Below, one piece after another: positions 1 to 56,526 of a stretch of DNA of 56,526 nucleotides; the first letter of the stretch is position 1; every line of letters begins with the position of its first letter. The translations under genes and the position numbers were made by a program. Origin of the DNA: a virus (taxonomy: Duplodnaviria; Caudoviricetes); IMG/VR virus record IMGVR_UViG_3300036785_000842, positions 1 through 56,526 of that record. One strand, written 5' to 3'. A model generated the notes under the pieces. It was not told the DNA's origin and made no database searches. It saw only the letters and a program-made list of their open reading frames with translations.

Positions 1-144
1 GCGGCGTGTTGTGGCGCGCCGGACGATGTCGTTGATGCACGCACTCTTGCGGCCGCCATAGATCGGCCCGATCAGCGCGCGCAGAAAGGCGTTGGAGGCA
101 GTGAACGCGCGCAGCTGCGCGCCGTGCGGCTCGTAGCTTTGCAT
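1..144 (-). CDS. terL: N-terminal 48 codons of terminase large subunit (continues across the window junction at 56526)
   Basis: ATG at 144 gives MQSYEPHGAQLRAFTASNAFLRALIGPIYGGRKSACINDIVRRATTRR, a Walker-A-like segment (cf. GPxGSGKSxACxxEIxRRA). No stop before base 1; joins in frame to AWRWLVVAPIRRELERYTIPAIKTWLD at 56526. Confidence 0.85.
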   Translation of the reverse strand, partial: MQSYEPHGAQLRAFTASNAFLRALIGPIYGGRKSACINDIVRRATTRR

Positions 145-179: not shown

Positions 180-245
180 CCGGTCCTCGGGGACAGTTCC
201 CGAGCCTGGGGCAAAAGCTTTTTTGTGCCCGCGGGCAGCTGTCAA
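180..245 (-). promoter_or_regulatory. candidate late promoter/leader upstream of terL
   Basis: TTGACA at 245-240 overlaps the stop of the upstream regulator gene, followed by hairpin CTCGGG-AACTGTC-CCCGAG. The -10 element is not clear. Confidence 0.35.
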
Positions 246-823
246 GGGATGCTGTAATAGGTCTGCAATATCCCCAGATCGGTCAATAGGATGCCGGTCG
301 CTATCCGAGCATCGACCCGACCGGTACCCCAGCCCCGCGATAGGGCCCACGATTCGATCGTCATTTCGCAGCCCAAAATATGCCAAGCACAGGACCCGCC
401 GGGCGAGGCGACCCCGCCGAGCTGCAAAAGCGCGTCGAACACCATCTCGGCTGCGGTCCGCGAACCGCGGCGGGCGAGCGAGATCTGCCCGTTGGTCGCG
501 AGCACCGGGATGCGGGTCGGGTCGGCGGCCCACAACGGATCCAACCCGGCTTCATTAAACATTTGGTTGAATACAGAACCGGCCGCTCTCATAGAGCGCG
601 AGATGGTCCCGGCCCGTTCCATGCGGGCCAAGGTATCGAGCGCCCTCCACGGCCGGCCGATGCCGCCATTGGCATCCTTGATCGTCTGCTCGCATCGCAC
701 GACGACGCCGCCGACATGATCGGCGCGGTACCGTTCCGGGGTCGGCTGCACAATGTCCGCTCCGTTGACCCCTGATCGCGCCGCTCCGTTGACCCTCGAC
801 CGCCGCCGCTTGGAACTGTTCAT
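242..823 (-). CDS. DUF6456-like phage late transcription regulator (antiterminator-Q-like position)
   Basis: LDTLARMERAGTIS...AAG..F and C-terminal CAWHILGCEMTIESWA...ATGILLTDLGILQTYY pattern typical of alphaproteobacterial phage DUF6456 proteins; immediately upstream of terL. Confidence 0.6.
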   Translation of the reverse strand: MNSSKRRRSRVNGAARSGVNGADIVQPTPERYRADHVGGVVVRCEQTIKDANGGIGRPWRALDTLARMERAGTISRSMRAAGSVFNQMFNEAGLDPLWAADPTRIPVLATNGQISLARRGSRTAAEMVFDALLQLGGVASPGGSCAWHILGCEMTIESWALSRGWGTGRVDARIATGILLTDLGILQTYYSIP

Positions 824-1194
824 CGCTTGGTTTCTCCCCTGGGATTTCTAGCAGCCGCCGCGTGCTCGGCGCACCAGCTGCCCTCGGCGAGCGGCTGGCC
901 GCACCAGTGCCAGGCACCGGGCGGATCACCTATCACCCAGCGGCACCCGCCTTGGGTGGCGCGCTCATAACCGAGGCTTTGTTCGAGGCGCTGCAATGCC
1001 CGGCGAGCAGCCGCCTGATCGTAAGGGATCGACTGGATGAGCTCACGGCCCGCGCGCCGATGCATCCGGCCGGCGATCGCCGAGGCCGTAAAGCCGGCGC
1101 CGAGCTCGCCGGCGATCGCCGCATAGGTCGCCCCCTCGCCGATCCGGCGGTCGACATAGCGGTCGCGCTCCGGGGTCCAATTTTTTCGCGGCAC
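820..1194 (-). CDS. gcrA: GcrA family cell-cycle regulator
   Basis: N-terminal WTPER...G.TYAAIAGELG..TASAIAGRMHR helix-turn-helix and C-terminal CRWVIGDP...WCG...WCAEH motif. Confidence 0.85.
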   Translation of the reverse strand: MPRKNWTPERDRYVDRRIGEGATYAAIAGELGAGFTASAIAGRMHRRAGRELIQSIPYDQAAARRALQRLEQSLGYERATQGGCRWVIGDPPGAWHWCGQPLAEGSWCAEHAAAARNPRGETKR

Positions 1195-1290
1195 AAGCCC
1201 CTCAAAACTGTTTAGGAGCCTTGCAGTGAGACAAGTCCTGGCTTATATTTCGTCTCGGTGCATCGCACCGGGACACAGGAAGGGGCTGAA

Positions 1291-1965
1291 ATGGCCGTCT
1301 ACGGTTATGTGCGGGTTTCGAAGGAGATCCAGGTCGAGGAGGGCCACAGCCTCGAAGAGCAGGAGCGCCGGATCGTCGGCCGGGCCCTGGAGATGGGCTG
1401 GCTGTTGACCGAGACCTTTGTCGAGTGCGGCGTCTCGGGCGGTACCCCTTTTGCCGAGCGTCCCCAGGGCGCCCGGCTCAACGCCACCCTGCAGAAGGGC
1501 GACATCATGATCGCCTCAAAGCTCGACCGGATGTTCCGCTCGGCCCGCGACGCGCTCAACGTGGTCAGCGATTTTCAGAGCCGTGGGATCTCGCTGTGGC
1601 TCTTGGACATGGGCGGCGACGTGTCGGGCAACGGGCTCTCCAAGCTGATGCTGACGATGCTCGCGGCGTTTGCCGAATTCGAGCGCGACCGCATCGGCGA
1701 GCGCATCCGCGACGTCAAGCGCCACCAGCGCCAGGCCGGCAAATATCTCGGCGGCGATGTCCGCTTTGGCTGGCGCCGCAGCGCCGAGGGTCTGATCGAG
1801 GAGGACCCGGCCGAACAGGCGGCACTGACGATGGGGCGCCGGATGCGCGCCGAGGGCGCCTCACTCCGCACCATCACAAAGGCGATCAAGACCGAGCACG
1901 GGATCGAGTACAGCGTCGCCACCGTCCACCGGGCATTGCGGGAGCCGCGGGAGCCGCAGTCGTGA
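1291..1965 (+). CDS. serine recombinase (resolvase/invertase family)
   Basis: YGYVRVS catalytic Ser motif, E.GVSG, KLDRMFRS, AEFERDRIGER, GKYLGG, C-terminal HTH. Confidence 0.92.
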   Translation: MAVYGYVRVSKEIQVEEGHSLEEQERRIVGRALEMGWLLTETFVECGVSGGTPFAERPQGARLNATLQKGDIMIASKLDRMFRSARDALNVVSDFQSRGISLWLLDMGGDVSGNGLSKLMLTMLAAFAEFERDRIGERIRDVKRHQRQAGKYLGGDVRFGWRRSAEGLIEEDPAEQAALTMGRRMRAEGASLRTITKAIKTEHGIEYSVATVHRALREPREPQS

Positions 1966-4039: not shown

Positions 4040-5487
4040 AACCCCAGCCCGTCGACATGACCCATCAGCGCCAAGCCGGCGATGCCGCGCTGGCGTGTCG
4101 TGGGATGCTGCCAGCGGTCAAACCCGAGACCCTCGAGCGCATCGACAAACCGGTTCTGAGGAAGTACATATTCACCAGCCGCTTTGATTTGTGCTTGATA
4201 ATCAGCGTGCAATTCACGGGTCAGCGAGCGTAACGACTTATCTATGTTGCAGCGCTCATCGATCCATGCTTGGAGAATATCTTCGTGGATAAAGTATTCG
4301 TTGGTTGCCTCTGTGACGATCGGCGGTGGCTTCAGACCGTGCTGTCGCCACAACACAGCTCCCAACACAGCCCATCGCATGATCCCGCCGAGCTCCGCCC
4401 TTAGCTTATCGATCAAATGCTTATCAACCACTCTCGGGCGGTGCTTAAAGGGCAACAAATGCATCCGCCGACGCATCGCCGAGGCGATCGACGAGAGGCG
4501 CGGGCGGTGGTTGCCGTGAAACATCAGCAGGCACTGCGGGTAGTAGGAGAAATCGTTCTTGTGCATGAAATGCGCATCGACCAGATCGCGCCCGGTCATC
4601 TGCGTCATGCGCTGCTGATCCCAGCGCCGACCCTCGTCGGTCTCGGCTGCGGTGACCAGCCGCTTGCCGACGAATTTCGCAATGTCCTGCGTGTGACGCT
4701 CTGCTTGCGTCGCCACAAACGTCGACATCGAGGCATTGCCGGCATAGGTCCCGTGCAATGCCCGCACGCACTCGACGAATTTGCTTTTGCCGGTGTTTGA
4801 GGGTCCATGGAGAAAAACAAACATTTCCTCCTCGGTCAATCCGGTCAGCGAGTATCCGATAAGCCGTTGCAAATAGTCCTGATAGTCACGAGCACCGTCG
4901 GTGATCTCACCCAAAAACCACAGCCAATGCGGACAGTCGCCCTCCGGTGCGGCACCCGCCATCTGCGTCATCAGCCGCCGGCGGTCATGCGGGTAGAGCT
5001 CGCCAGTAGCCAGATCGACAATCCCGCCCGGCGTGTTCAGCAATAGCGGATCACTGTCGAAATCAGCGACCTCGCGGGCCATCCTGTCGTCACTGCGCGC
5101 CAGCCGTTCGACGGACGCAATGGTCGAGCCTTTACACACCTGACGGGCCAATGGGCCACTCTCGATCCTGGCCGACGTGCCGCGGCAAATCACGCGTACC
5201 CGCTCGGTCACCGTCCCACGCTCGTCTTTCAGCCAGCGCTGACCATTCCAGCTCAGCCACTTCTCCTCGGCTTTCACATAGAGCCAGTCGCCAACCAATT
5301 TGGCGGCCAATTGCAATGCCAGCTCATCGTCCGACGCCCAGGTCGGCTTCGGACCCTCATCACCCGGCGGTGATGCCGCTGGCGGACCGCCGCCACCGCC
5401 GCGGCGATCATCCTCACGAGCCTTGCCTTCGCGCCAGAAATTGAGATTGACGACCTGCGCAGCCGATTCAACCAGCTCTTCTGGCAT
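4036..5487 (-). CDS. P4-family phage/plasmid primase-helicase (D5_N + SF3 helicase)
   Basis: LLNTPGGIVDLATGELYPHD, Walker A GPSNTGKS, GKRLVTAAET, GNHRP, RRMHLLPF. Confidence 0.92.
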   Translation of the reverse strand: MPEELVESAAQVVNLNFWREGKAREDDRRGGGGGPPAASPPGDEGPKPTWASDDELALQLAAKLVGDWLYVKAEEKWLSWNGQRWLKDERGTVTERVRVICRGTSARIESGPLARQVCKGSTIASVERLARSDDRMAREVADFDSDPLLLNTPGGIVDLATGELYPHDRRRLMTQMAGAAPEGDCPHWLWFLGEITDGARDYQDYLQRLIGYSLTGLTEEEMFVFLHGPSNTGKSKFVECVRALHGTYAGNASMSTFVATQAERHTQDIAKFVGKRLVTAAETDEGRRWDQQRMTQMTGRDLVDAHFMHKNDFSYYPQCLLMFHGNHRPRLSSIASAMRRRMHLLPFKHRPRVVDKHLIDKLRAELGGIMRWAVLGAVLWRQHGLKPPPIVTEATNEYFIHEDILQAWIDERCNIDKSLRSLTRELHADYQAQIKAAGEYVLPQNRFVDALEGLGFDRWQHPTTRQRGIAGLALMGHVDGLGL

Positions 5488-6583
5488 CGCTCACTCCCCC
5501 ACCGATTACTGCGAGATGCTGAATGTACTCGTTGACGTCTTTGACGAATACAGGCGGTGCCCAATAATATACTTTGCGACCTTCGGCTTCAAACCGAGCG
5601 ATTACTTTGGTCAATAGCCGCCGCGCCGGCGACAGTCTGACTGTCTTGCCATCTGCGGTCATCCGCGGATCGCGCTGCGCCAATATGCGGATCTCGGTAA
5701 ATTCGGGCGGCAGTTCCATTGCCATCATAAAGGACAGACTGACGGCGCAGGCGGCCCGCCACTGCGGCTCGAACTGCACGTAGCTGAGCAGGTCCTCGAT
5801 GCCCTCGGCGATCAGCAGGGTCTCACCCGGCTCGATCGAGCTCCATGGCCGACCCTTGGCACCGCGCCACAAGCGGATGTAACCGCCGCGGAACGGTCCG
5901 AGGCTCAATTTGGGATCCTTGAGCGGCGCCTTGCCGACCCTGGGCCCGTCCTCGAACGCCAGGTTACGCTCCTCGAGCCAGGTGCGGTGCACCGCGCAAT
6001 TCTTGCCGTCGGCGTCGGTGATCAGCGCCACCATCGCCGGCCACGCGCGCTGCGACTCTCCGTTCCACAGCCCCGGATGACAGCGCAATACCGAGGGCAC
6101 GCGCGGCAGGCGCCCGAGATCGATGCCGCGATCGGCGAGATAGCGCCAGACGACGTCGCCGCGCTCGACCGGGTTGCACGCGAGCCACAGCGCCATCGCC
6201 CGCTTACCGTTCTGCTCGAGCACACCGAGCGCGATCGCCCGGCCCGAGGCGGGTGCCGGCGATGGCGGCGGTTTGCGGTCGCGCTCGCGCTCCGGGCGTC
6301 CGAGCCATTGGCGCGCCCAATCCATCGCCTTGAGGATGTCACCGTTGCACTCGACCTGGGCGACCAAGTCGAGGGCGTCGCCACGCTCGTCCGAGGCGTA
6401 GTCATGCCAGCGGCCGCGCCTGGGTCCAGAGAGAATGATCGCCAGCGACTGGCCGTTCTCGCCGGCGAGCGAACCGACGCGCGCCCACATCCCGCGGCGC
6501 TCGGCATTCGGCAACAGATCGCGATACAATGAACCGATGCGCAGGTTGAGCTCGCGGGCGAGCTCGGCCGCTTCGCCCTTCAC
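5468..6583 (-). CDS. TOPRIM-domain DNA primase
   Basis: N-terminal GSLAGENGQSL...W.D.ASDERGDALDL, YLADRGI, PAMVA, AVHRTWL, IAEGIED, KDVNE. Confidence 0.85.
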   Translation of the reverse strand: MKGEAAELARELNLRIGSLYRDLLPNAERRGMWARVGSLAGENGQSLAIILSGPRRGRWHDYASDERGDALDLVAQVECNGDILKAMDWARQWLGRPERERDRKPPPSPAPASGRAIALGVLEQNGKRAMALWLACNPVERGDVVWRYLADRGIDLGRLPRVPSVLRCHPGLWNGESQRAWPAMVALITDADGKNCAVHRTWLEERNLAFEDGPRVGKAPLKDPKLSLGPFRGGYIRLWRGAKGRPWSSIEPGETLLIAEGIEDLLSYVQFEPQWRAACAVSLSFMMAMELPPEFTEIRILAQRDPRMTADGKTVRLSPARRLLTKVIARFEAEGRKVYYWAPPVFVKDVNEYIQHLAVIGGGVSDARRAG

Positions 6584-6897
6584 GCCAGCGCTCCGGGATA
6601 TTGCTCGTCGATCAGGCTGATCACGCGCGCGCTAAATCGATCGCTGAGCTCGCGCGAAGCCCATCTGAGGATCGGCTGATATTCCGCCTTGCCGTTGACG
6701 TCGCGCTTCTGGCGGCCGGTCTCGTCGAGCACCGGCCTGCCCGGCAGCGCCACCCACGGACTGCCGTTATTGCCGATCATCACCGGCAGGTCGGTCACGA
6801 TCAGCCCCGGCGGCAATTCGACCGTGCAAAACCCGCGCAACGAACCCTTGACCACCTCCTTGAACGAAACCAGCCGTAGACGCGCCTGTCCGTTCAC
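6580..6897 (-). CDS. SpoVG-like nucleic-acid-binding protein
   Basis: GSLRGFCTVEL..GLIV.D..V...G.PWVALP...Y.PI..W pattern. Confidence 0.65.
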   Translation of the reverse strand: MNGQARLRLVSFKEVVKGSLRGFCTVELPPGLIVTDLPVMIGNNGSPWVALPGRPVLDETGRQKRDVNGKAEYQPILRWASRELSDRFSARVISLIDEQYPGALA

Positions 6898-8855
6898 GGC
6901 GCGCGCCCTTCACCCCCGGGCACCGCCTTGCGCTGCTGCAGATAATGAAATACGGCTGGCGCCTCGAGCGGGTCGGCCTCGATCGGCAAGTCTCCAGGCA
7001 GTTCGAGGATGCGGTTTCCGAGCAGATTGGTCTTCATATACACGGCGACCCCGGCGTCTCGGGCTTGCTGCACCACATCGACAATCCAATCGAACGGCGG
7101 GCGCCACTCCGGCGTCGGCGGGTCATTCTTTGTGGATGACGCACCACCAATGACCATCCAGTGAAACCGCTCGAGATGCGTGAATTGTAGCGGCTCCAAC
7201 ATCGGCTCGATGGACAACCATCGGATCTTTGATCCGACATGTTCAAAACCAGCCTCGGCAGCGGCGACACGCGCCTGTAGGTCGACCGTGGTTCCCATCC
7301 AGCAATTGGCCGGGATATCGAACTCAGCCATACGCTTAGGAAACTTGGTCAAACACAGGAAATTCCACTGCGGCGCAGCGCGGATCTCGGTAAGGATCGC
7401 CTCGATCCATTCCGTCGGCACCCAGCGGCCAAAAACATCGGCCATCGAGCCCATGAAGACATTACGGAAGCGCGCGTCGGTCTTCGCCTTGTCCGGGACT
7501 TTCATAAACCGCGGTGCCAATAGCGAGCGCGGCTTCAGCGTCGGCGCAAAACCATTAGGAAAAACCTTCGCCCGGTCGAGATCATTGGCGATCTCCCGAG
7601 CATAGCAATAGGGGCAAGTGTGCTCGCAGCCGGTGATCGGGTTCCACGACCACTTCGCCCACTCGATCTCGCGGCTTTCCTGCGGGTTGAAGGTGGCCTT
7701 GCTGACACTGCTGGGCGCAGGCGGCAACAACGCCAGCTGGGTCGCCTGGTCGAGGGTCTGCCACTCCTCCAGGGCGACGTAGTTGAGCAGCCGCAAACTG
7801 CGCGCGCGGGCGGCCTCGGTGGCGCGCTGCGCCTCTCTGTGCAGGCGCTCGACCCCGGCTAAGTTCTGGCGACAGCGGGCAACTACCGCATCGAAATATT
7901 CAAGCGCTTCAGCGTAGGTACCGAAATAGGGTTTGTCCATCGACATTGACCCCTCGAAGAGCTGAAGCGTGCCAGCGAGCGGGTCGGCCTCATAGCCCTC
8001 TAATTCCCCTTGTCTTCGCGCGATCGCATCAAGCTCGGCAATGGTGCGCGCTTCGGCCTTGATGACCCGATCGATATCGGCCGGTGTCGCAATGCCAGCG
8101 ATCAGCGCCTCGGCAATGTCGAGGTAAAACGGCGGCTCACTGATGTTCTTGAACCGCACCACCCGAGCCCGTGTCTCCTCGACCGTCCATGCCCGTTTGG
8201 TCGCAACCGTGACGGTGCCGCCGGGCTCCCGCAATGTCGCTTCGGACGGCAGCATCGCCTCGACCAAGGCCGGCCACAGCCACTCGGGGGCGGCGTGGAT
8301 CTCGACGAGAACGCGGAAGTGACCAGCGAGATCACCCAGATCATTATACACGTGTAGAACCGCAGAAGCGACCCGAGCAGCCATCACCTCGTGACGGACA
8401 GTCTGGTATTCCTTCTCACGTCCCACACTGGCGGCGTACGCTTTGACATCGAGGTCTTCCGGCTTGGCGACGCTATGCAGCGCGTGCAGGCCGTGCTCGA
8501 GGGCGGTCAGCTCGCTTTGCGCATTGCTCGTCACCAGCATCATGTACGCCGTCGCGTCGTCGAGCTCACGCACCCAGCACGGTACCCGATCCAGCCCGGC
8601 GCGCTTGGCAGCACTCCAGCGGTGATGCCCCGAAACGATCTGCCAGCCCCCGCCCAGCGGGCGAACGATCAGCGCGTGCGCCGGGTCAAACCCCGAGGCC
8701 AGGCCCGCTGCTATCGCCTCGATGACGTCGATGCGCTCGCCGAGCCGCGGATTGTCGGGATGCGGACTGAGGCGAGCCACCTCGAGCCATTCCGGGGCTG
8801 ATGGCGTGGCGAATGAAATTAGCCGGAGGTCGTTCGGGGATAAAATTGGTGACAA
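6894..8855 (-). CDS. ParB-N domain fused to DUF5131 (Gp37/Gp68-like, radical-SAM-type Cys motif)
   Basis: LSPHPDNPR...IVSGHHRWSAAKRAG.. ParB motif; WSWNPITGCEHTCPYCYA, FMGSMADVF, LTKFPKR, WMGTTV, SIEPML. TTG start at 8855 chosen from SD AAGGGAG. Confidence 0.88.
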   Translation of the reverse strand: MSPILSPNDLRLISFATPSAPEWLEVARLSPHPDNPRLGERIDVIEAIAAGLASGFDPAHALIVRPLGGGWQIVSGHHRWSAAKRAGLDRVPCWVRELDDATAYMMLVTSNAQSELTALEHGLHALHSVAKPEDLDVKAYAASVGREKEYQTVRHEVMAARVASAVLHVYNDLGDLAGHFRVLVEIHAAPEWLWPALVEAMLPSEATLREPGGTVTVATKRAWTVEETRARVVRFKNISEPPFYLDIAEALIAGIATPADIDRVIKAEARTIAELDAIARRQGELEGYEADPLAGTLQLFEGSMSMDKPYFGTYAEALEYFDAVVARCRQNLAGVERLHREAQRATEAARARSLRLLNYVALEEWQTLDQATQLALLPPAPSSVSKATFNPQESREIEWAKWSWNPITGCEHTCPYCYAREIANDLDRAKVFPNGFAPTLKPRSLLAPRFMKVPDKAKTDARFRNVFMGSMADVFGRWVPTEWIEAILTEIRAAPQWNFLCLTKFPKRMAEFDIPANCWMGTTVDLQARVAAAEAGFEHVGSKIRWLSIEPMLEPLQFTHLERFHWMVIGGASSTKNDPPTPEWRPPFDWIVDVVQQARDAGVAVYMKTNLLGNRILELPGDLPIEADPLEAPAVFHYLQQRKAVPGGEGRAP

Positions 8856-12551: not shown

Positions 12552-12616
12552 CCTATTGTAGGCTAGTCAATATGAGGCTATATAGGGCGCGGGGCAGCGA
12601 CCCCGAGGAGAACCCC

Positions 12617-13684
12617 TTGGCACTCAAGCTCGTACCGCCCGGCACCCGCGGCAACAAATTCTGGATCGCCTACGGCCGGCACAACGACAAGGTCGTGTCG
12701 ATGTCGACCGGCCAATTGCAGCGAACCCGGGCCGAGGCCTGGCTGCGCCAGCAGCTCAAGCCGGGCGGGGCCCTCTGGGAGCGCGCGGTCGACGCCCAGC
12801 GCAATTTTGCCGCGGCGGCCGAGGCCTATGCGCTGGCCAAGGACATCGATCTGGCCCTGCCGCAGGGCAGCAAAGAGCGCGCCGCGGCGCGCGACATCAA
12901 CCGGCTGATCGAGGTCCTCGGCCACCGCCAGGTGGCGCAGATCAACGAATTCGATCTGCACCAGGCGGCCAAAGAGATCTTCCCGACCCAGCAGGCCGAG
13001 ACGCGCAACCGGCATGCGCTCAAACCGGCCCTGGCAATCCTCCACAAGGCGACCAAAGCGTGGAAACTGCAGCGCATCGAGGCCGCGATGTTCCCCGAGA
13101 AAGCGCCGGCGACCCGTGCGGTGGCGCTGGAGATCGACGAGCTCTTGTTACGGGCGATCCCGGCCGGCGCCCGCGCCTCGGCACCCGGTTCCTCGGTGGC
13201 ATTGCGGCGGCTGGCGGTGCTGTGGTTTCTGCGCCAGGGGACGCGGATCAGCGACACCTTGCAGATCACCTGGTCCGACATCGATCTCGACCCGGCTCGC
13301 GAGACCTGCCGCCTCCTGGTCGGCAAGACCCAAAGGTGGCGCGAGACCGCACTCGACCCCGATGTCGCCGAGGCGTTGCGGGCGATCCCCGAGGACCAGC
13401 GCCAGGGTCCGCTCTTCCCGTGGCGGCAAAAGAGCGGTGTCTATCGCTGGCTGCGCCCGCTGGTCCGCGAGCTCGGGATCCAATTCACCCCGCACCAGGG
13501 GCGCCACACCCTCGGCAAGCGCTTGAACGATGCCGGTGCCGGGCTGCGCACGATCATGGAGGCGCTGGGGCACGCCGATGTCAAATCGTCGCTGCGCTAC
13601 CAGGCCGGCGACATCGCGATCGTGCGCCTGGCACTGCACAACCTGGCGGCCAAGCGGGCCCAGGGTCGGACAGGTGCGGCATGA
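12617..13684 (+). CDS. int: tyrosine recombinase / phage integrase
   Basis: Catalytic set GTRISD (R), K, HQGRH, LGH, SSLRY; TTG start after SD GAGGAG. Confidence 0.92.
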   Translation: MALKLVPPGTRGNKFWIAYGRHNDKVVSMSTGQLQRTRAEAWLRQQLKPGGALWERAVDAQRNFAAAAEAYALAKDIDLALPQGSKERAAARDINRLIEVLGHRQVAQINEFDLHQAAKEIFPTQQAETRNRHALKPALAILHKATKAWKLQRIEAAMFPEKAPATRAVALEIDELLLRAIPAGARASAPGSSVALRRLAVLWFLRQGTRISDTLQITWSDIDLDPARETCRLLVGKTQRWRETALDPDVAEALRAIPEDQRQGPLFPWRQKSGVYRWLRPLVRELGIQFTPHQGRHTLGKRLNDAGAGLRTIMEALGHADVKSSLRYQAGDIAIVRLALHNLAAKRAQGRTGAA

Positions 13685-47336: not shown

Positions 47337-48305
47337 TTACACCAGGCCGCCGATATCGCGCGACAAGAGGTGCGAGGTGCGCGCCTGTTCCAGCGCCGCG
47401 CGCTGCTGGATCTCCTGACCCTGCTGCTCGATCTCGGCCATATGCAGCATGCCTTCCTGCTGCAGTTTCTTGGCGTCGCCCTGGGCCTCTATGTAGGCCT
47501 TCATCAACTGCACGGCGTTGGCCTGTTGCTGCGCCTGGACCTTGGCTTGATCGATCTGCTGATCGCCTTGCGCGGTGCGCGCCTCGGTCACGATCTCCAT
47601 CGGCGATTTGGTGTTGCCCCGCTGCTGCTGCTGCGGGTTTGGCGTCGGCGGCGATTGCGCGAGCGTCCTGAAAGCCTGCTCGAACATCGGTTCGAGCCCG
47701 CGCGCGGCCGGGAACGCCCGCACCCCGAACATCACCAGGGCCATCGCCAGGGGTGCGACCGCCGGGTTCTGCTGCACTTCGGGGATGATCATCTGCAGCA
47801 TCGGCATGATCGCCTGCAGAAACTCGGTGCGGGCAGCCTTTTCGGCCTGTTCGTCCGGAGCGATCGTCGAATCGGCCTCGATGTCGACCTTGTAGCCGGT
47901 CTGCACATCGTGCCGGACCATGTGGCAGGCGCCGAGAAACTGGGTTCGCCGGCGCGTGTTTTCGGCATCCCAGGCGGCTTTTTGCGCTCGCCATTGGGCA
48001 AAGGCCGGGTTCGGCATCATCCCCGGCGGCACCATACCGAGCGGCCCCTGAGCGATTGTCGAAGGGCCCCCCGGCGCCGGCATCCCGCCCGGTCCCGGCA
48101 GCCCACCGCCGGGACCTCGGGCAGGGAGACCGGGTCCCGGCGGTGGGAGACCGGGTCCCGGCGGTGGCAGACCGGGCCGTCCCACCACAGAGGGCCCGGT
48201 CACTCCCGGCCCGGCAGGCATCCCACCGCCGCCCAAAAGCGGCCCCCCTGGTGGCATCGCCCCACCGCCCGGAAATCCGACGACGTTGCTACGCTGTTCG
48301 GACAT
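47337..48305 (-). CDS. portal protein, C-terminal part (crown/barrel-like)
   Basis: Gly/Pro linker, then GYKVDIEADSTIAPDEQAEKAARTEFL...FGVRAFPAAR.LE and a Gln-rich coiled coil; own SD GAGAGGA. Confidence 0.75.
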   Translation of the reverse strand: MSEQRSNVVGFPGGGAMPPGGPLLGGGGMPAGPGVTGPSVVGRPGLPPPGPGLPPPGPGLPARGPGGGLPGPGGMPAPGGPSTIAQGPLGMVPPGMMPNPAFAQWRAQKAAWDAENTRRRTQFLGACHMVRHDVQTGYKVDIEADSTIAPDEQAEKAARTEFLQAIMPMLQMIIPEVQQNPAVAPLAMALVMFGVRAFPAARGLEPMFEQAFRTLAQSPPTPNPQQQQRGNTKSPMEIVTEARTAQGDQQIDQAKVQAQQQANAVQLMKAYIEAQGDAKKLQQEGMLHMAEIEQQGQEIQQRAALEQARTSHLLSRDIGGLV

Positions 48306-48322
48306 GGCTAATCCTCTCTGCC

Positions 48323-48607
48323 ATGGCCTTACCTCCTCCGATCCCATTGCGCCCCGCCGACCGCCCCGAGACCTGGGCGGAATATCAGCACCGGCGCCGG
48401 ATCCTCGCGCTGTGGCGTTCGATCGGCGATTTCGTGGTCAAGGGTCACTTCGCCAGCTTTGCCGACCTCATCCTGCTGGCACCCTACCGCCAGCCGATGC
48501 TGCCGCCGCGGCCGTTCGTGCCGTTCACCACGCTATTGGGCGGCGGGATCGTGCCGGGATCGCCTCAGGGCGAGCCGATCACGCTGCCGTGGTCCCCCGG
48601 AGAGTGA
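48323..48607 (+). CDS. small antisense protein ending in a TerS-like motif
   Basis: GC3-rich codons; PGSPQGEPITLPWS vs PGSPEGEPVTLPWS in 3055..3588; no obvious SD. Confidence 0.55.
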   Translation: MALPPPIPLRPADRPETWAEYQHRRRILALWRSIGDFVVKGHFASFADLILLAPYRQPMLPPRPFVPFTTLLGGGIVPGSPQGEPITLPWSPGE

Positions 48608-48687: not shown

Positions 48688-51489
48688 CTAGCGTCCGGGC
48701 ATAAAAAATGCCGGCGGCTCGCCGGCAAATGGATCGTGATCGACAGGAATGAGGTTGGGCGGCGGCTGCGCGGCCTGCGCCGGGTTGGTCAATGCTCCGT
48801 AGCCGGCGCCGAGAAGACCGGCGCCGGCCAGACCGGCGAGCGGCCTTAGTTGCCGCCCCCGCGCGGCGGGAGGGGTCTGCTCGTAGCGCTCGACGCGGGG
48901 TTTGAACTGGTCGATCCAGGCTTGGGTGGCGATCCGCTGCTGCTCGGCGATGTCGCGGACTTTTTGCCGCGCGTCCTCGAAAGCACCAGCTCGCTCGCCG
49001 GCGCTCCAACGTTGCGCTCGAACTCCTCCGGGTCTCCCGACATCATCCTGACCGGCATTGCGCTGACCTTCCCAAAAATCGTTGATGTGGGTGTCGTAAT
49101 TCTCGATGGCGTTTTGGCTCGGATGCTCAACGTAATATGACTGATACGCCCGCGGGTAAACTTGGATATTCCGCCCCGGCTGGTCAAATGCGCCGATCGC
49201 CGCAGCCTGCACCTGATCGCCCGACGGCGGCAGGACACCTTGATCGGTAAACGCCGGATGAACATCGACGAGGATGCCGTTGGGGCGACGCGTCGCGCTG
49301 ACCTCGCCACCGTGCCCGATCAATCGCTGGAATTGCTGCACTTGCGCGGTCGTGGTCGGGACCGCTCCCGGACCTGTCTCGGGGACGAACACCGAATAGG
49401 TTCGCAATCGGCCGCCGGCGTCCGCCGTCAGCGGCATCGTCTCAAAATGCGAGGCCGGCGCTGCCTCCTGGCCAAAACCTTCGCCGAGTGCGGAGAGCAC
49501 CGGATGGATCTGCTCGGGGGTCAAGCTGATCCGGTCGGAGCCCGCCTGCGCCCACATCGGGATGCGCAAATTTGGTGAGATGTCGCCCTGATAGGTGCCC
49601 CAGCCATTGTTGTCGACCCGGCTGACCGCGGCCCCCTTCCGGCCGATGACCGGTGCCACCAATTGCGAGACCACCGATTTCCCGCCGCCGGTCGTCACCG
49701 CATCCATCGCATCGCGCTGCAGCCGTTCCATCTTGTAGCGCGCGGTGTTGGCCCAGGGTGGCGCATCGGGACCGGCAGGCGGCAGGCGGCTTAAGAGGTC
49801 GGTGGCCTCCCGGCCCTCGGGCGTCATCTTTGTCGCGGTCTCGATCGTCGCCGTCGGCGTGGCGAGGTATTGCGCGCGCGTGCCGCTCATCAAATTCGGC
49901 ACATCGGGGTGCCCCAGCACCTCGGGGCTGAACAGCCCCTTGCTGGTGTCGACCCCGGCCGCCTCGAGCTGAGGCTTGATGTGGTTGTCCATCACATCGG
50001 CGTAATCGTCGCTGACCCCGATCTTGGTCGGGTCTTTCGTGCCGCGGTAATGGGTCCAGGCCGGCGCCTGGATCTGCCAGCTCTCAAACGGGTTTTCGGT
50101 GCCGGCCGCGACCCCGGGCCGCGCGGCGTTCTCGGCATCGCGAAAATTCTGGGTGAATTGCGAGGCGAGCGCATAGAGGTCGGGGCGCTTGGCCAGCTCG
50201 TCGGGATCCATGCCGAGGACCTCGCCATGCTGGCGGTCGTTGACCGAGATCGGCGGCTTGTCGTCGGCACCGGCGATGTGCAGAAACGTGCCGGTGTAAT
50301 TGGCGGTCTTGGGCGCCTCCATGCCGGTGGTCAACGCCATGCGCACCGTTCCGGGCTGTATCAGATCGGTCGAGATCGGCTGACCTTGCTGGTGCTCGGC
50401 CAGCACCCCGACGGTGCGCTGCAGGTTCTGCAGTGGTTCAGCGCTAGGCGAGGTCGCCGCGGTCACATTGAGCGCGTCGCGCATGTCCTCGGGGTGTTGG
50501 TCGAGCCCTTCGCTCTGAAACTTGCGCGCGCCGTTTTCGTACCAGTAACGCATCTTTTGCGGCTGGCTCAGCGCGTCGTTCCAGAATTTTGGCGTGTTCG
50601 GACCGACTTGCGGATTGTCCGCGAGGTATTTGTCGAGCTTCTCAGCCTGCTCCGGGCTCCACGAGCGGACCGTCTCGACCGCATCGTCCCAGGCTTTCTG
50701 CAGATCGGCCGCACTCGACTTCATGCCGCCGATCGACTGCGACATGTCGAGATCGGTCCAATCGGCGCCGCCGACCACCGGCACCGTGCCGACCCCCTCC
50801 TTATAGGGTCCGATCCGGCGGTTTTCGACCGGCAGGACCGTGTCGAGATCGCTGTTGCGGATCAATCCGCTGCGCGGCGGTGTGCCGGGTGCTGCAGCAG
50901 CGGGCCCCGCTGCCGCCTCGCCGGGCGGTATCGTCGACACCAACGCCGGCGCACCAATCGGCTCGGGCGGTTGGTTGTGACCAATCCCCGCCGGCGGACC
51001 CAGTTCAGCCAGCGGATCACCCGGCAGCTCACCCGGCAGCGGTACGCGACCACCGCGGCCAGGCCCGCGGCCGATGCCGGCGCCGACCGAGCCGCTCGGC
51101 GCTGCACCGGCGACATGCATCAGACCAAAGCTGGCGAGCTCCTGCGGCGTCATCTCGGGCAACCCGGTCTCGGTATTGCGGCCGAGCAGCCGGTTTTCCT
51201 GCTCGAGATACCCCGGGATACTGAGACTGCCGTAAATGCCGCGCGCAATGTCGGCCACATCGCCGCCGATCGCCTCTCCGGCACCACGCAGAACCCGGCC
51301 GGTTGCGCTGACCGCCGGCGCGATCGCCCTCGACAAATTGGCCATGCCAACTGCCTCGGGATCGCCCCAAAAACCGGTCGGATCGGGATCGCGCGGCAAA
51401 GGCGGCGACCGCATCGGCGAGGGCTGGTTGGGATCGCCAAATCCGCCATCGCCAAAATCCGGGTCGTAGTCGACCGGGATCAACGCCAT
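48688..51489 (-). CDS. large putative virion/injected protein with DUF7178-like (HhH-GPD-like) domain
   Basis: YWYE...AATSP...N...PKTANY...ISVNDRQH...QIQAPAW pattern; LIPVD(Y/H)DP motif at both termini. Confidence 0.55.
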   Translation of the reverse strand: MALIPVDYDPDFGDGGFGDPNQPSPMRSPPLPRDPDPTGFWGDPEAVGMANLSRAIAPAVSATGRVLRGAGEAIGGDVADIARGIYGSLSIPGYLEQENRLLGRNTETGLPEMTPQELASFGLMHVAGAAPSGSVGAGIGRGPGRGGRVPLPGELPGDPLAELGPPAGIGHNQPPEPIGAPALVSTIPPGEAAAGPAAAAPGTPPRSGLIRNSDLDTVLPVENRRIGPYKEGVGTVPVVGGADWTDLDMSQSIGGMKSSAADLQKAWDDAVETVRSWSPEQAEKLDKYLADNPQVGPNTPKFWNDALSQPQKMRYWYENGARKFQSEGLDQHPEDMRDALNVTAATSPSAEPLQNLQRTVGVLAEHQQGQPISTDLIQPGTVRMALTTGMEAPKTANYTGTFLHIAGADDKPPISVNDRQHGEVLGMDPDELAKRPDLYALASQFTQNFRDAENAARPGVAAGTENPFESWQIQAPAWTHYRGTKDPTKIGVSDDYADVMDNHIKPQLEAAGVDTSKGLFSPEVLGHPDVPNLMSGTRAQYLATPTATIETATKMTPEGREATDLLSRLPPAGPDAPPWANTARYKMERLQRDAMDAVTTGGGKSVVSQLVAPVIGRKGAAVSRVDNNGWGTYQGDISPNLRIPMWAQAGSDRISLTPEQIHPVLSALGEGFGQEAAPASHFETMPLTADAGGRLRTYSVFVPETGPGAVPTTTAQVQQFQRLIGHGGEVSATRRPNGILVDVHPAFTDQGVLPPSGDQVQAAAIGAFDQPGRNIQVYPRAYQSYYVEHPSQNAIENYDTHINDFWEGQRNAGQDDVGRPGGVRAQRWSAGERAGAFEDARQKVRDIAEQQRIATQAWIDQFKPRVERYEQTPPAARGRQLRPLAGLAGAGLLGAGYGALTNPAQAAQPPPNLIPVDHDPFAGEPPAFFMPGR

Positions 51490-51493
51490 CGGT

Positions 51494-53335
51494 TCAGGCC
51501 ACCATCAGGTATTTGCCGGGACGACGCGGATCGGGGACGTAGTGCCTGCCGTCGCGCGCCAGCCGGGCTCCCGGCGGCAACGGCGGACCGGGCGGCGCCA
51601 GCATGGGCGCCCGGACGGCACCGGGAGGCACCTGGGAAATCATCGGGCCCGGCCGTCCGGGAACCCCGACGGCCGGCGCCGGTAGACCGGCGCCGGGTGG
51701 TGCGCCGGCGCCGCCGGGCATCCCTGGGCCGCCCGTCGACAGAATACCTGGACGAGACGGCGGCGGTCCCGCTGCCGGTGCCGGGGCCGGCGCAGGGAGA
51801 GCCGGTCCGCCGCCCATCGCCGGACCCGGTGCGGGGGTCGGCGCCGGGATAAACATCGGCGGCGGCGGCGGCAGCGCCGGCAGCGGTTGCGGCAACCCGG
51901 ACATCCGCGACAATGTCTCCGGGTCGAAATGGCGCGCCATGACGGCCCCGCGCAATCGCATCAGATCGCGGGCAAAGCGCCCGACGTCCTTTTGCGCGCG
52001 GGTGATCCGGCGGGTGGCGAATTGGGTCTTGAGCTGCTGGGCGCCGAGCGTCTCGATCGGGTTGGTCTCGCCGCGCAGAATGTCGGCGATGCCGGTCGTC
52101 TGATAGATGATCTGCAGGAGGCGCTCGCGGGCGTCGTAGAGCTGAATCATCACCCGGGCGATCTGCTCGACCGGCAACCACTGGATCAGGTTCTGCAATC
52201 CCCCCTTGTCGCCGGCGAACCCGGCCCAATCCTCGACCGGGATCAGGCGGTTTTCGCTGCTGTCGTCGACCAGCTGCTGCAACACCATCTTTTCGGATCC
52301 GGCATAGACGCCGGCGACCTTGAGCGCGCGGGTCAATTTGTCGATCCGGCTGGTGATTACATCGAGCTCCTGGGCCTGATCTTGATATTCGATGTAATCG
52401 GCGACCGCTACCCGCTTGTTGTTTGTCGTCGTCGCTCTGAGGCAAGGCGGCGACGGGAAAAAGTCAGGTAATTCGAGCGGATCGTCCTGGGTGTCCAGCG
52501 GGCCCTCGGAATAGTTCTTGGCGACCCACACCGCCTGGTGCTTTTTCTTGTCCCAGATCTCCCAGACGGTGGCTTTTTTGAACATGTCGGCGAGCGGGCC
52601 CTGGTTGGCCTCGCTGGCCACCGCATGCACCCCCGAGGGGGTGTAATCGAGCCCGACCTTTTTGCCGAGCTCATTGCCAAAGCGCTCGCAGAGCTCGTCG
52701 CGCGTCATAAACGAGCGGTAGGCCTTCCACCAGATCTCGCCCTCGGTGCGCGCCGGGGTTTCCCGGTAATCCTCCCAAAAAACATAGCGGATCGGGGCGC
52801 GCTCGTTGGCGACCGGCTCAAACGTCGATGGATTGCCGTCCTCGTCGGGCTCGCCGTCCGGGTCCTCCTCGGGCGGCCCGAATTCGGGCTCGTAGAACAC
52901 CCGCGCGACCCCGCGGCCGGGCAACAGCCGGTCCTCGACCACCTGCTGCATGACCGCGTCGAACTCCTCGATGTCCTGCTCGTAATCGAGGGCGGCTTCG
53001 AGGATCTGCGCGCCCATCGCCGCCACCGGGTCGTTCTCGTCCTTGTGGCGGCGCGCGACATCGGGTTCCGGGGTGCGCCCGTAGAGCACCGGCTTTAGGG
53101 TTTCGATATTTGACCACAAAATGTTGTATTTTGCGGTACGCGCCTCGTTGGCGTCGCGCTCGTCGCGGTAGCGGTCGACGATGCGCCGGCCGCGCTTGAT
53201 AAAATCCTCGTCCTCGCGCTCGGCCAGGCTCAGCTGCGAGTTCCAGAACTGCCAGACCGCATTGGGTGTCGTGCCGAGGTCCTTGCGCTCCTCGATCGTG
53301 CCGACAACCGCGGTCGCCCCCTGCAGATCGGCCAC
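51494..53335 (-). CDS. portal protein, N-terminal part
   Basis: YNILWSNIETLKP.LY...P.P.V.RR, DRLLPGRG, WEIWDK, IYQTTGIADILRG...ETLGAQQLK; position after terL. Confidence 0.88.
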   Translation of the reverse strand: MADLQGATAVVGTIEERKDLGTTPNAVWQFWNSQLSLAEREDEDFIKRGRRIVDRYRDERDANEARTAKYNILWSNIETLKPVLYGRTPEPDVARRHKDENDPVAAMGAQILEAALDYEQDIEEFDAVMQQVVEDRLLPGRGVARVFYEPEFGPPEEDPDGEPDEDGNPSTFEPVANERAPIRYVFWEDYRETPARTEGEIWWKAYRSFMTRDELCERFGNELGKKVGLDYTPSGVHAVASEANQGPLADMFKKATVWEIWDKKKHQAVWVAKNYSEGPLDTQDDPLELPDFFPSPPCLRATTTNNKRVAVADYIEYQDQAQELDVITSRIDKLTRALKVAGVYAGSEKMVLQQLVDDSSENRLIPVEDWAGFAGDKGGLQNLIQWLPVEQIARVMIQLYDARERLLQIIYQTTGIADILRGETNPIETLGAQQLKTQFATRRITRAQKDVGRFARDLMRLRGAVMARHFDPETLSRMSGLPQPLPALPPPPPMFIPAPTPAPGPAMGGGPALPAPAPAPAAGPPPSRPGILSTGGPGMPGGAGAPPGAGLPAPAVGVPGRPGPMISQVPPGAVRAPMLAPPGPPLPPGARLARDGRHYVPDPRRPGKYLMVA

Positions 53336-53762: not shown

Positions 53763-54473
53763 CTAAAATATTGCACCTTCTGGCGGCGCCACACCCTTAG
53801 CGCGGCAAACCCCGCACAACTCGCGAAAGGATTTTTTCCCGATATTCGGGATATGCAACAGCTCGGCGCTGTGCATTCTCGCCGCCGCGCGCAACGTGGT
53901 GATCCCCTCGCCGCACAAGGCGTTTTTTAGCCGAGCGCTGACGTCGAGGCCGGCGATTGGCCAATCCGCTTCTGCCGGTTCCGCCGGTTCGGCTTGGCTT
54001 TGCGCACTCTTCGGTTGAGCGATTGCGCGCGCCAACATTCCGCGCAGCCGCTCATTCTCCTTGGCCACGGCGCGCCAAACGGCCCCGGCGTTCTCCAGCT
54101 GCTGTTCCAATCCTCGTGTGTGCTCTTGCAAGCGTTGTTGATACGACCGGGCATAGACGCGGCTCTCCTCGACAGCCTGCTTGAGAGCCTCGTTTTCCGC
54201 CATCAGACGCCGAACCGTGTCTTGCAGCTCGATGATTAGGTGATTGACGTTGGGCCCGACGCCGCCCCCATAACGATCCCATTGGGCAAACGACGGCGGC
54301 GCCGGAACCGGCGCGTGGCCCTTGGCCACCAGGCTCTTCAAATCAAACCAGCTGAGCCCAGCCTCGCGCAGCATCGCCTGCGCCAAATCACGAGCATTCA
54401 ACGCCTCGCCCTCAGCGGCGGAGCCCATCATGCCGATGATTTTGGCGAGTTTTGACCAATCGAGCCCCGTCAT
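53763..54473 (-). CDS. protein with DUF2786-like N-terminus, coiled coil and RNA polymerase alpha-CTD-like domain
   Basis: KLAKIIGMMGS..EGEALNA; C-terminal PIAGLDVSARLKNAL...GITTL......ELLHIPNIGKKSFREL. Confidence 0.75.
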   Translation of the reverse strand: MTGLDWSKLAKIIGMMGSAAEGEALNARDLAQAMLREAGLSWFDLKSLVAKGHAPVPAPPSFAQWDRYGGGVGPNVNHLIIELQDTVRRLMAENEALKQAVEESRVYARSYQQRLQEHTRGLEQQLENAGAVWRAVAKENERLRGMLARAIAQPKSAQSQAEPAEPAEADWPIAGLDVSARLKNALCGEGITTLRAAARMHSAELLHIPNIGKKSFRELCGVCRAKGVAPPEGAIF

Positions 54474-54483
54474 CACCAGAAGT

Positions 54484-56526
54484 TTAGATGCGCTCCGGGC
54501 GGCCGTTGCCGATAAAGCGCCCGCCGCGGTAGTAGCGGGCATCGAGCTTGTAGAGCTCGTCGATCGTCATCCCGCCGATACCGCGCTGCTCGGGCTCGAC
54601 GGGCTTGGGTTTCGAGCCGGGGACCATCTCGTCGAGCATCCGCCCGATCAGGCTGAGGGTGTCGACCTGATCGTCATATTTCCCGGCCGGAAAGCGCAGC
54701 AATTCATCCATCAGGGTCGCCGCCCAGGGCGCGCGCTTGGGCAGATAGACCTTGCCCATCGCCACCCGCCCGCGGATCGCCTGCGCCCGCACCGCCTTGT
54801 CGGCAGCCGAGCTGAACTGCTTTCTATGGGCATAGACCTTGCGCTCCAGCTGGCGCTTGGTCAGAAACGGCCCGACCCCCTTCTCGATCTGCCCCGATTC
54901 CTCGGCCCAGGTCAGGGTTTTCCACAGCTCCATCAGATCGATCACCGCCTCGACCCACTCGTTCGAGGCGACCTGCTTGCGCCACAGGTCGAGCAGATAG
55001 AGATCGTCGTTCGGATCGAGCCCGCCGACGATGTGCACGGTGTAATCGCCCATGTTGGCGCGCACCGCATAATCCGAGGCGCCATAGGTGCGCAGCTGAT
55101 CGCGCTGTGGCGCTGTGTCGTACCACCTCAGCCAGTCGTTTTTGAAATAATCGCCCGACTCGGGCATTGGCCGCTGCTGGTAGAGCGCCGACCAGTTGCG
55201 CGCGTCACGCTGGGCATTTTCAAACATTTCGGTTGTGAACCACTCGGGCCACAAGCGCTCACCGGGCACCCGCCCGAGGGCATCGCCGTCCTCGGCGATG
55301 GCCGGCAGGCTGACGACCTCCCACTGCTCGCCGCCGATCTTGGCGTCCTCGAGCAAGCGCCCGGCGAGGTCGTCCTCGTGCCACCGGGTGCCGATGTAGA
55401 GGAGCCCGGCCTCGGGCACGAGCCGCGTCCAGAAATCGGCCTTGTACCACTCCCACACATGCTGCCGGATCGTCGCGCTATCGGCCTCGGCCTTGCCTTT
55501 GACCGGGTCGTCGATGATCCCCAGATGAGCCCGGCGGCCGGTGACGCTGGCATCGACCCCGACCGCGAAGTACTCGCCGCCGCGGGCGGTTTCCCAGCGC
55601 CCGGCCGCCCCGCTGTCGCCCGACAATCCAAATCCGAATGTCCCGCGGAAGATCGGCGAGCCGACGATGTTGCGCACCCGGCGGCCAAACCGCTCGGCGA
55701 GCTCTTTGGAGTGACTGGCGGCGATCACCGACTGGGTCGGGTGATTGCCGATGTACCAGCTGGGGAACAACACGCTGCCGTAGGTCGATTTTGCCGACCC
55801 CGGCGGCAAAAAGAACATCAGCCGCTTGATTTCCCCCTTGGCCAAGGCCTCGAGCTTGGCCAGCAGCAGCTGATGATGGCGCGCCGGGCTGATATCGGGC
55901 ATCGCCAACGCCACCCAGCGCCCGAGATCCTGGCGGGCGGCCGCCCGATCGGCCTCGGCCTGCGCCTCGGTCGCGGTTTGCCCCAATTCGGCGTCGATAT
56001 TGACCCGGATCCAGTCGGGATCGCGCTCGCTGGCAAAGGCGGCGTAGGAAAACCCCTTTTTGGCCAATGCCGGCAGGTTTTCGGCCTCGGCCGAGCGTCC
56101 GCTCGGCTGGCGAAACAGCACCAGGTCGCCCGGCTCCTCGGGCCGGCGCACCAGCCAATGACCCGGCGGCGGCATCCGCGAGGAACACACGACCCCGGAC
56201 CACACCGCCCCGCCGGCGAGCGGGGTCGGGAAGGTGCCGGCGATCCGCTGCGCGTCCTCGAGCACCGTCTCGCTCAAATTGCGCGCGTCGTCGAGCCACA
56301 CGCCGGTCGCCGCGGCCGCGGCAAAGCGCCGGCGGTCTTGGGCATCGTCCATCCCGAGAAAATCGAGCTCCAGCGAGCGCTTGACGCCATCCTCCAGCCG
56401 GTAGCTCAGCGCAAAATGGCGGCCCTTCTCGTCATATTCGCCAAGGTCGAGCCAGGTCTTGATCGCCGGGATCGTGTAGCGTTCGAGCTCGCGCCGGATC
56501 GGCGCCACGACGAGCCATCGCCAGGC
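54484..56526 (-). CDS. terL: terminase large subunit (open at window end; extra N-terminal ATPase-like domain)
   Basis: LPPGSAKST (Walker A), GIIDDPVK (Walker B), GTRWHEDDLAG, YQQRP, nuclease ASDYA...DDQVD. Confidence 0.93.
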   Translation of the reverse strand, partial: AWRWLVVAPIRRELERYTIPAIKTWLDLGEYDEKGRHFALSYRLEDGVKRSLELDFLGMDDAQDRRRFAAAAATGVWLDDARNLSETVLEDAQRIAGTFPTPLAGGAVWSGVVCSSRMPPPGHWLVRRPEEPGDLVLFRQPSGRSAEAENLPALAKKGFSYAAFASERDPDWIRVNIDAELGQTATEAQAEADRAAARQDLGRWVALAMPDISPARHHQLLLAKLEALAKGEIKRLMFFLPPGSAKSTYGSVLFPSWYIGNHPTQSVIAASHSKELAERFGRRVRNIVGSPIFRGTFGFGLSGDSGAAGRWETARGGEYFAVGVDASVTGRRAHLGIIDDPVKGKAEADSATIRQHVWEWYKADFWTRLVPEAGLLYIGTRWHEDDLAGRLLEDAKIGGEQWEVVSLPAIAEDGDALGRVPGERLWPEWFTTEMFENAQRDARNWSALYQQRPMPESGDYFKNDWLRWYDTAPQRDQLRTYGASDYAVRANMGDYTVHIVGGLDPNDDLYLLDLWRKQVASNEWVEAVIDLMELWKTLTWAEESGQIEKGVGPFLTKRQLERKVYAHRKQFSSAADKAVRAQAIRGRVAMGKVYLPKRAPWAATLMDELLRFPAGKYDDQVDTLSLIGRMLDEMVPGSKPKPVEPEQRGIGGMTIDELYKLDARYYRGGRFIGNGRPERI

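Follow-up and report, generated by a model that had tools for sequence, protein, structure and literature searches.

A predicted pseudo-ATPase domain precedes a complete large terminase of another lineage in a phage genome

Large terminases (TerLs) are among the best-studied molecular motors and serve as a standard marker for phage classification. Two described groups stand closest to the gene considered here, the terL of a 56,526-nt IMG/VR virus record (IMGVR_UViG_3300036785_000842; linear class, without terminal repeat, ~94% complete), the whole of which is referred to below as the window. The first group comprises the Mx8-type TerLs (Mx8 p44, 482 amino acids (aa); Cronobacter phage Ss1 orf04, 475 aa; and those of Burkholderia phage BcepC6B and Rhizobium phage RHph_TM3_14A), which have the ATPase fold, most structural motifs and the domain boundary in common with the amino-terminal domain (N-domain, ~235 aa) of the window protein. 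They belong to phrog_2 and give weak matches to Terminase_3 or Terminase_6N, whereas the N-domain matches no PHROG, Pfam or NCBIfam model and lacks their P-loop Lys, catalytic Glu, C-motif Asn and conserved Arg residues, as well as the nuclease of their own lineage. The second group, the phrog_38/Terminase_6N TerLs of the Brucella Tb/Pr/Bk group, Microcystis phage Mwe-JY13 and Pseudanabaena phage Pam1, resembles the carboxy-terminal part (C-part) of the window protein in sequence, in Walker A and in the GcrA-like gene upstream, but these proteins begin about 70 residues before Walker A, without an extra ATPase-like domain; the gene just upstream of terL is annotated as the small terminase subunit (TerS) in Bk and is an unnamed 138-aa gene in Mwe-JY13. 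Tandem ATPase folds of which one is non-hydrolysing, and is thought to serve assembly, are also found in type II AAA+ ring ATPases such as NSF and p97; compared with these, the two domains of the window protein come from different lineages rather than from a duplication, belong to another branch of the superfamily, and the presumed inactive one also occurs as a separate protein.

Our analysis indicates, at a probability of about 0.6, that the window terL encodes an active-type phrog_38 TerL preceded by a mobile pseudo-ATPase of single origin that serves as a non-catalytic part of the terminase. No earlier description of such a domain was found in the full-text literature, subscription journals and supplements lying outside that coverage.

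Two terminase lineages in one gene

The window terL is a single in-frame gene on the minus strand, encoding a protein of about 733 aa, and the two ends of the contig meet inside it. Its parts, in window coordinates, are as follows.

1–144, minus strand: 5′ piece of terL (start codon ATG at 144–142), the first 48 codons and the start of the pseudo-ATPase domain, aligning with residues 1–48 of relatives of 732–734 aa
54484–56526, minus strand: remainder of terL, 680 codons plus a TAA stop at 54484–54486, with an open 5′ end, from the reading of the open reading frame (ORF) and from relatives
55978–56526, minus strand: predicted pseudo-ATPase domain from residue 54 to residue ~236 in the numbering of the complete protein, a homologue of Mx8-type TerL ATPase domains by tblastn, profile, AlphaFold2 and Foldseek
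55900–55980, minus strand: Ala/Glu-rich linker, equivalent to the amino-terminal helix of phrog_38-type TerLs by comparison with the Bk TerL amino terminus
55129–55818, minus strand: TerL ATPase domain (Terminase_6N) from motifs and family models, with Walker A PPGSAKST at 55783–55815, Walker B IIDDP at 55504–55527 and TRWHEDD at 55369–55395
54652–55047, minus strand: RNase H-like nuclease domain, located from the TIGR01630 match in relative P0002

Both terL pieces aligned by tblastn to adjacent parts of one TerL, in Mx8, Cronobacter phage Ss1 and a Pelagibacter phage, and the close relatives of 732–734 aa are continuous across the position of the window ends, where they read ...RRAT..RYAKQTAWRW... 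The gap between base 1 and base 56526 was exactly 15 nt (five codons) at the DNA level in all four close relatives. The initial annotation of this DNA had joined position 1 directly to position 56526; that join is in frame and rightly gives one gene, but it skips five residues, while all the motif strings that it quoted were located in the terL translation. A 99% identical protein on a 56,400-nt contig (P0001) begins just four codons earlier than the window break, and breakage of both at nearly the same site could come from the way in which such contigs assemble or from a genome end that physically lies within terL.

The first ~230 aa had been proposed to follow one TerL family throughout, and the comparisons bore this out. 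In tblastn searches the N-terminal ~235 aa matched the TerLs of Cronobacter phage Ss1 (E=3e-13) and Mx8 (E=2e-10), with BcepC6B and Rhizobium phages next; the matches correspond to the ATPase half of complete TerLs of 475–482 aa. A profile built from eight family members aligned with the Mx8 TerL at E=1.8e-38 over profile positions 11–233, so that the region does align with terminase ATPases, and PDB sequence searches with the N-domain profile and with the C-part gave no match. Structure prediction, which had been suggested as a check, agreed with these comparisons. The modelled sequence was the N-domain of relative L007, which is 85% identical to the window over the 183 residues that they share (the window being without the five codons); the AlphaFold2 model, computed from a 114-row alignment, had a predicted local distance difference test score (pLDDT) of 96.5 and a predicted template modelling score (pTM) of 0.93, and superseded an earlier run on 8 sequences (pLDDT 44.6). 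Its best PDB fold matches in Foldseek were TerL ATPase domains, namely P74-26 (4znk, E=1.1e-10) and D6E (5oe8, query template modelling score 0.74), followed by Sf6 gp2, HK97 and T4 gp17. By these comparisons, the N-domain is a homologue of the Mx8-type TerL ATPase domain with the TerL-ATPase fold of the additional strand, conserved glutamate (ASCE) class. The end of the N-domain coincides with the ATPase/nuclease boundary of Mx8-type TerLs, and behind it stands a complete TerL of another lineage instead of the nuclease domain of its own.

That second terminase, likewise recognized in the initial annotation, was confirmed. The C-part matched PF03237 (Terminase_6N; E=3e-15, 56.9 bits against a cut-off of 22) and phrog_38 (E=1.4e-116), phrog_5573 and phrog_12171 also matched the window protein, and the C-part was 45–47% identical over >90% of its length to the TerLs of Mwe-JY13, Pam1 and Brucella Tb-like phages. 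The motifs PPGSAKST, IIDDP and TRWH were invariant in 12 of 12 aligned sequences, including that of the cultured phage Mwe-JY13, and Walker A PPGSAKS is also present in the TerL of the cultured Brucella phage Bk. For the nuclease domain, TIGR01630 matched relative P0002 with E=1.3e-12 and 48.4 bits (curated cut-off 41.65), and PF17289 matched the region weakly, at 18.9 bits and below its cut-off. The C-terminal ~500 aa form an ordinary TerL of the phrog_38/Terminase_6N type, composed of an ATPase motor and a nuclease and presumably active.

Separate profile analysis of the two domains assigned them to different lineages, as proposed: stand-alone proteins related to the N-domain are in phrog_2 and those related to the C-part in phrog_38, and the two ATPase domains of the protein showed no profile–profile similarity (hhalign probability 0.09%, with shallow alignments). 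The protein is not the product of a tandem duplication. At the junction, comparison with the Bk TerL showed the end of the ATPase domain (...IDAELG) joined to the near-complete amino terminus of a phrog_38-type TerL, a structure that is the expected product of stop-codon loss between two adjacent genes. An internal start for a separate TerL was considered and rejected, the Met in ...AMPD... not being conserved.

Loss of catalytic motifs and retention under selection

Alignment of the N-domain with active relatives located four motif regions in the window.

43–69, minus strand: degenerate Walker A GPIYGGRKS, with Lys changed to Arg and Ser/Thr to Lys relative to active GPxGSGK[ST]
56281–56304, minus strand: remnant of Walker B, GVWLDDAR, with the catalytic Glu changed to Asp relative to active hhhhNE
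56155–56190, minus strand: remnant of the C-motif, VCSSRMPPPGHW, with the invariant Asn changed to Arg relative to active DTNPP
56077–56115, minus strand: FRQPSGRSAEAEN, a motif common to the active and disabled classes

To place these changes in a broader set, an N-domain profile was searched against 1.84 billion representatives, which gave 1,392 matches at E<=1e-3, and the best 150 of the 1,392 were aligned with the 25 proteins of the fused family. Rows were called active when they held the P-loop Lys, the P-loop Ser/Thr and the Glu after Walker B. Among the 174 rows containing most of the domain, 127 were active by this definition and 47 were not; 44 of the 47 shared one common pattern and the other 3 were scattered cases. 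Beyond the defining residues, the 127 active rows carried Arg61 and Asn170 (100% each), Arg148 (98%) and Arg151 (95%), all four of which have been lost in the 23 disabled rows that remained after thinning. These 23 rows have class-specific residues of their own, including Arg32 (87%), Lys33 (74%), Ser169 (87%), Arg170 (91%), Met171 (78%) and several others, and three conserved basic residues have been gained in the former ATP pocket of the disabled class. The N-domain of the window follows the same pattern, with SSR at the position of DTN and with Arg61, Arg148 and Arg151 all replaced. Residues that are retained in both classes and are not obviously catalytic comprise F14, R22, GP, RW, E106, F109, W130, R135, P153, HW and QPxG....AEN.

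Within the fused family, the P-loop reads G-P-x-[YF]-[GA]-G-R-K-[ST] in all 24 proteins holding that region, and the position of the catalytic Glu is occupied by Asp in 24 of 25; the altered Walker A and the missing catalytic Glu first described for this gene are thus shared by its family, and the C-motif Asn and three Arg have gone as well. It is very unlikely that both ATPase domains are active, with the N-domain hydrolysing ATP at a non-canonical site. A Gly-rich loop followed by Arg-Lys-Ser/Thr remains, and an acidic residue is found at Walker B in most members, with D-E in P0006 and P0031; however, six invariant or nearly invariant positions of the 127 active relatives have been lost together, and the Glu position varies across the disabled class (D, G, N, V, A, S, Q, R, H), which is unexpected for a catalytic residue. 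Outside this class, three isolated active Mx8-type members (P0053, P0103 and P0167) have independently lost the catalytic Glu or the P-loop Lys, and are perhaps decaying genes or sequencing errors.

The frame of the gene is intact and the disabled domain is retained, as the initial annotation had it. All 11 IMG/VR loci found with the N-domain hold it in a single uninterrupted ORF of 731–740 aa, several of them inside contigs of 57–59 kb, and terL was free of stops in 12 of 12 genes. More fused loci were found (L072, L074, L075, L123, L151/L152 and L153, plus six new contigs), the intact fusion being present in at least 23 further metagenomic contigs, and of the 25 family members that the homology search gave, 23 have a length of 677 aa or more. 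The ratio of nonsynonymous to synonymous substitution rates (dN/dS; Nei–Gojobori method), another check that had been proposed, was 0.12–0.18 for the N-domain in the three closest pairs with the window, compared with 0.14–0.17 for the active ATPase and 0.15–0.21 for the nuclease. Purifying selection thus acts on this pseudo-ATPase module with the same strength as on the catalytic domains.

Furthermore, the gene is covered by Logan contigs of soil metagenome runs, and pieces from two runs, belonging to two studies, extend from the N-domain into the linker with >31 letters to either side of the junction and with no indels listed; no RNA data set was among the sequencing runs listed. The fusion is not an assembly chimera. 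A neutral remnant or a product of misassembly is a barely credible account of the domain, one to which the break of the window itself inside terL lends something, but which is opposed by the recurrence of the intact fusion, by the low dN/dS and by the contigs from two studies.

A disabled family across unrelated terminases

The disabled domain is found in several other contexts. It precedes TerLs of the phrog_2/phrog_5902 type in P0026 (749 aa), P0035 (728 aa) and P0073 (737 aa), and the C-part of P0026 showed no BLASTP similarity to that of P0002, which is of the window type. In P0040 and at locus L076 it precedes an intein-bearing phrog_31467 ATPase; at L076 the ATPase part with the pseudo-domain (4989–7430) and the nuclease phrog_5653 (7750–8418) are separate ORFs about 320 nt apart, and the portal is of phrog_332 rather than the Mx8-type phrog_12082. 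Free-standing forms, consisting of the domain and a short tail (254–310 aa), make up at least 12 clusters at 50% identity. Two groups of these, A3 (P0032, P0038 and P0043) and A4 (P0036, P0044 and P0086), have conserved C-terminal tails of their own, and the alignment of their ends indicates that they are not truncated fusions. P0029 was discounted as a free form, as it looks like a frameshifted fused one.

All ten free forms that were looked up are metagenome singletons. IMG/VR held no relatives of the free forms A3 or P0181, and the search with A4 gave fused forms only; genome scans with A4 and with A1 (the N-domain alignment) gave no match, and a single metagenome scan returned one fused locus. 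The N-domain was present in none of 51 loci with relatives of the P0026 C-part.

A tree was computed for 30 disabled and 43 active domains after removal of the three motif regions (IQ-TREE in quick mode, LG+G4, unrooted). Its rows are a reduced set, from which 14 near-duplicate members of the window's family, the three scattered cases and two in every three active rows had been dropped. Disabled and active domains were split on one branch with a Shimodaira–Hasegawa approximate likelihood ratio test (SH-aLRT) value of 100, and free and fused forms were interleaved on the disabled side. Judged from these sequences, the disabled domain appears to be an old family of single origin that has been fused to several unrelated terminases and also exists as separate proteins.

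Inteins were a recurrent side observation in this set. They interrupt the P-loop region of several terminases (P0010, L076 at 4989–7430, P0062, P0077, P0095 and others); the C-part of P0010 (1062 aa) contains LAGLIDADG and homing-endonuclease domains, and many active Mx8-type TerLs of 800–1150 aa are split directly after GPxGSGKS.

Genomic setting, origin and possible roles

The following genes of the window bear on the origin of the fused terL and on the character of the phage.

51494–53335, minus strand: portal protein, phrog_12082 (Mx8-type), by family match
242–823, minus strand: conserved 193-aa protein directly upstream of terL, seen in relatives, possibly the small terminase subunit or not
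820–1194, minus strand: GcrA-like regulator (PF07750)
1258–1965, plus strand: serine recombinase (Resolvase, E=1.5e-31)
5468–6583, minus strand: DUF7146/Toprim protein
12572–13684, plus strand: tyrosine integrase (E=2.9e-19)

The phage is probably temperate and of alphaproteobacterial type, and a pattern scan of 185,579 species genomes found no prophage copy. The portal ORF covers only positions 14–474 of the phrog_12082 profile, positions 527–712 falling on a separate 336-aa ORF (47337–48347, minus strand); between the two lies a 933-aa ORF (48688–51489, minus strand) that has no family match and is conserved in relatives L006 and L012. Between terL and the portal gene, a 259-aa ORF (53763–54542, minus strand) overlaps the end of terL by 59 nt and combines a coiled-coil middle with a C-terminal helix-hairpin-helix like that of the carboxy-terminal domain of RNA polymerase alpha (PF03118, E=7e-11); it is present in L007 and had no match in the other 10 family loci compared, including L006 and L008.

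The initial annotation had explained the arrangement as a pseudo-ATPase adaptor left after motor replacement, which would mean an Mx8-like terL overwritten from the nuclease onward by a complete foreign terL, with the old ATPase kept for its contacts with TerS or the portal. Its description of a catalytically disabled and selected TerL ATPase homologue stood; the replacement history did not fare as well, and is unlikely. In its favour, among cultured phages it is Mx9 and Mx8 that have the portals most similar to that of the window (36% identity, E from 2e-76 to 9e-80), and their TerL is of the lineage of the N-domain; the N-domain, moreover, stops exactly at the Mx8-type ATPase/nuclease boundary. 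However, one disabled clade that includes free proteins and fusions to other TerL lineages, on a tree indicating a single origin, is not what a relic formed in place would give, and at L076 the domain stands beside the phrog_332 portal. In Brucella phages, TerLs of the phrog_38 type lack the extra domain, while the portal belongs to the same family as that of the window (30% identity). The local order of a GcrA-like gene, one small gene and terL resembles that of Bk and Mwe-JY13, as in phages with a phrog_38 TerL; the junction has the structure described above; and the GC content at third codon positions is similar in both parts of terL (0.85 and 0.87). Judging from these comparisons, the N-domain is probably not a relic after motor replacement.

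The 193-aa protein accompanied the fused terL in 16 of 20 loci of one scan, and distant homologues are found upstream of a phrog_9 TerL module without the N-domain. It gave no BLASTP or hhalign match to Bk terS, to the Mwe-JY13 gene at the same position or to Mx8 p43, the hhalign probability of its family against the first two being 0.06%, and the sole lead was DUF6456 (Atlas). A scan with the small-terminase families of PHROGs and Pfam, confined to ORFs near terL, found none among the 5 ORFs neighbouring terL.

These observations touch on the possibility, which we regard as doubtful but as an alternative to be taken seriously, that the disabled domain replaces the small subunit, recognizing or holding DNA and handing it to the motor, in trans or in cis. 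The domain sits directly upstream of a catalytic TerL, in the slot of the annotated terS of Bk and of the small unnamed gene in Mwe-JY13 and L172; the lack of a TerS family match nearby and the three basic residues gained in the former ATP pocket would also suit such a role. Against it, the conserved upstream 193-aa protein could itself be TerS, no DNA-binding motif was found in the N-domain, and the scan for TerS covered the vicinity of terL and not the whole genome; furthermore, we know of no small terminase that resembles the free forms (255–310 aa, ASCE fold).

Defence sensors such as Avs3 read active-site features of TerL, and a disabled domain might divert bacterial sensors of the TerL ATPase fold as a decoy, or shield the phage from them. 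The PDB entry 8dgc, 'Avs3 bound to phage PhiV-1 terminase', was among the fold matches of the N-domain, at rank 27. A counter-defence function is nevertheless highly improbable, as no defence-related neighbours were seen that would give it contextual support, and the tight fusion to terL together with motor-like selection suits a packaging role better.

Several points weigh against the reading of the N-domain as a mobile, non-catalytic terminase part. It is called dead from its motifs, and a Lys is present one position after the lost P-loop Lys; together with the D-E at Walker B in P0006 and P0031, this makes residual nucleotide binding or slow hydrolysis possible. In distant pairs (with L013), dN was 0.41–0.49 for the N-domain and 0.18–0.25 for the active ATPase, with dS near saturation. 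The single clade holds only if the root of the quick, unrooted tree lies among the active rows. Finally, the gene-fusion route is one that we infer, and it assumes that free forms adjoin a terL.

With these points taken into account, the preferred reading remains that of a mobile pseudo-ATPase ahead of an active-type phrog_38 TerL. The N-domain keeps the full Mx8-type ATPase fold, as modelled, but has lost every residue needed for ATP hydrolysis; its P-loop has Arg-Lys instead and its C-motif Ser-Arg-Met. In the phage of the window, the most likely route to the fusion is that two neighbouring genes lost the stop codon separating them. The domain would then be tethered to TerL and would belong to the terminase holoenzyme without hydrolysing ATP itself. 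It may serve as a scaffold for docking or assembly, have a regulatory role or substitute for a function of the small subunit. Its working surfaces may be those common with active TerL ATPase domains (QPxG....AEN) together with the remodelled basic pocket at the former ATP site. Its function alongside unrelated TerLs makes it improbable that the partner it binds specifically is a surface of TerL.

More tentatively, terminases may have components of a third kind, the pseudo-terminase ATPases: free or fused, these would be inert motor-domain copies that assemble with unrelated active TerLs and either recognize DNA and load the motor in place of the small subunit or form a non-hydrolysing second tier of the ring. 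If a dead paralogue of the motor domain moves between terminase lineages, packaging machines have a new element, regulatory or structural in kind. Such a domain would also account for over-long 'TerL' calls in metagenomes, where annotation pipelines miss the domain or take such genes for ordinary TerLs, and it would offer a natural system for the function of the non-catalytic surfaces of the TerL ATPase, namely the lid, the QPxG....AEN motif and the ring contacts.

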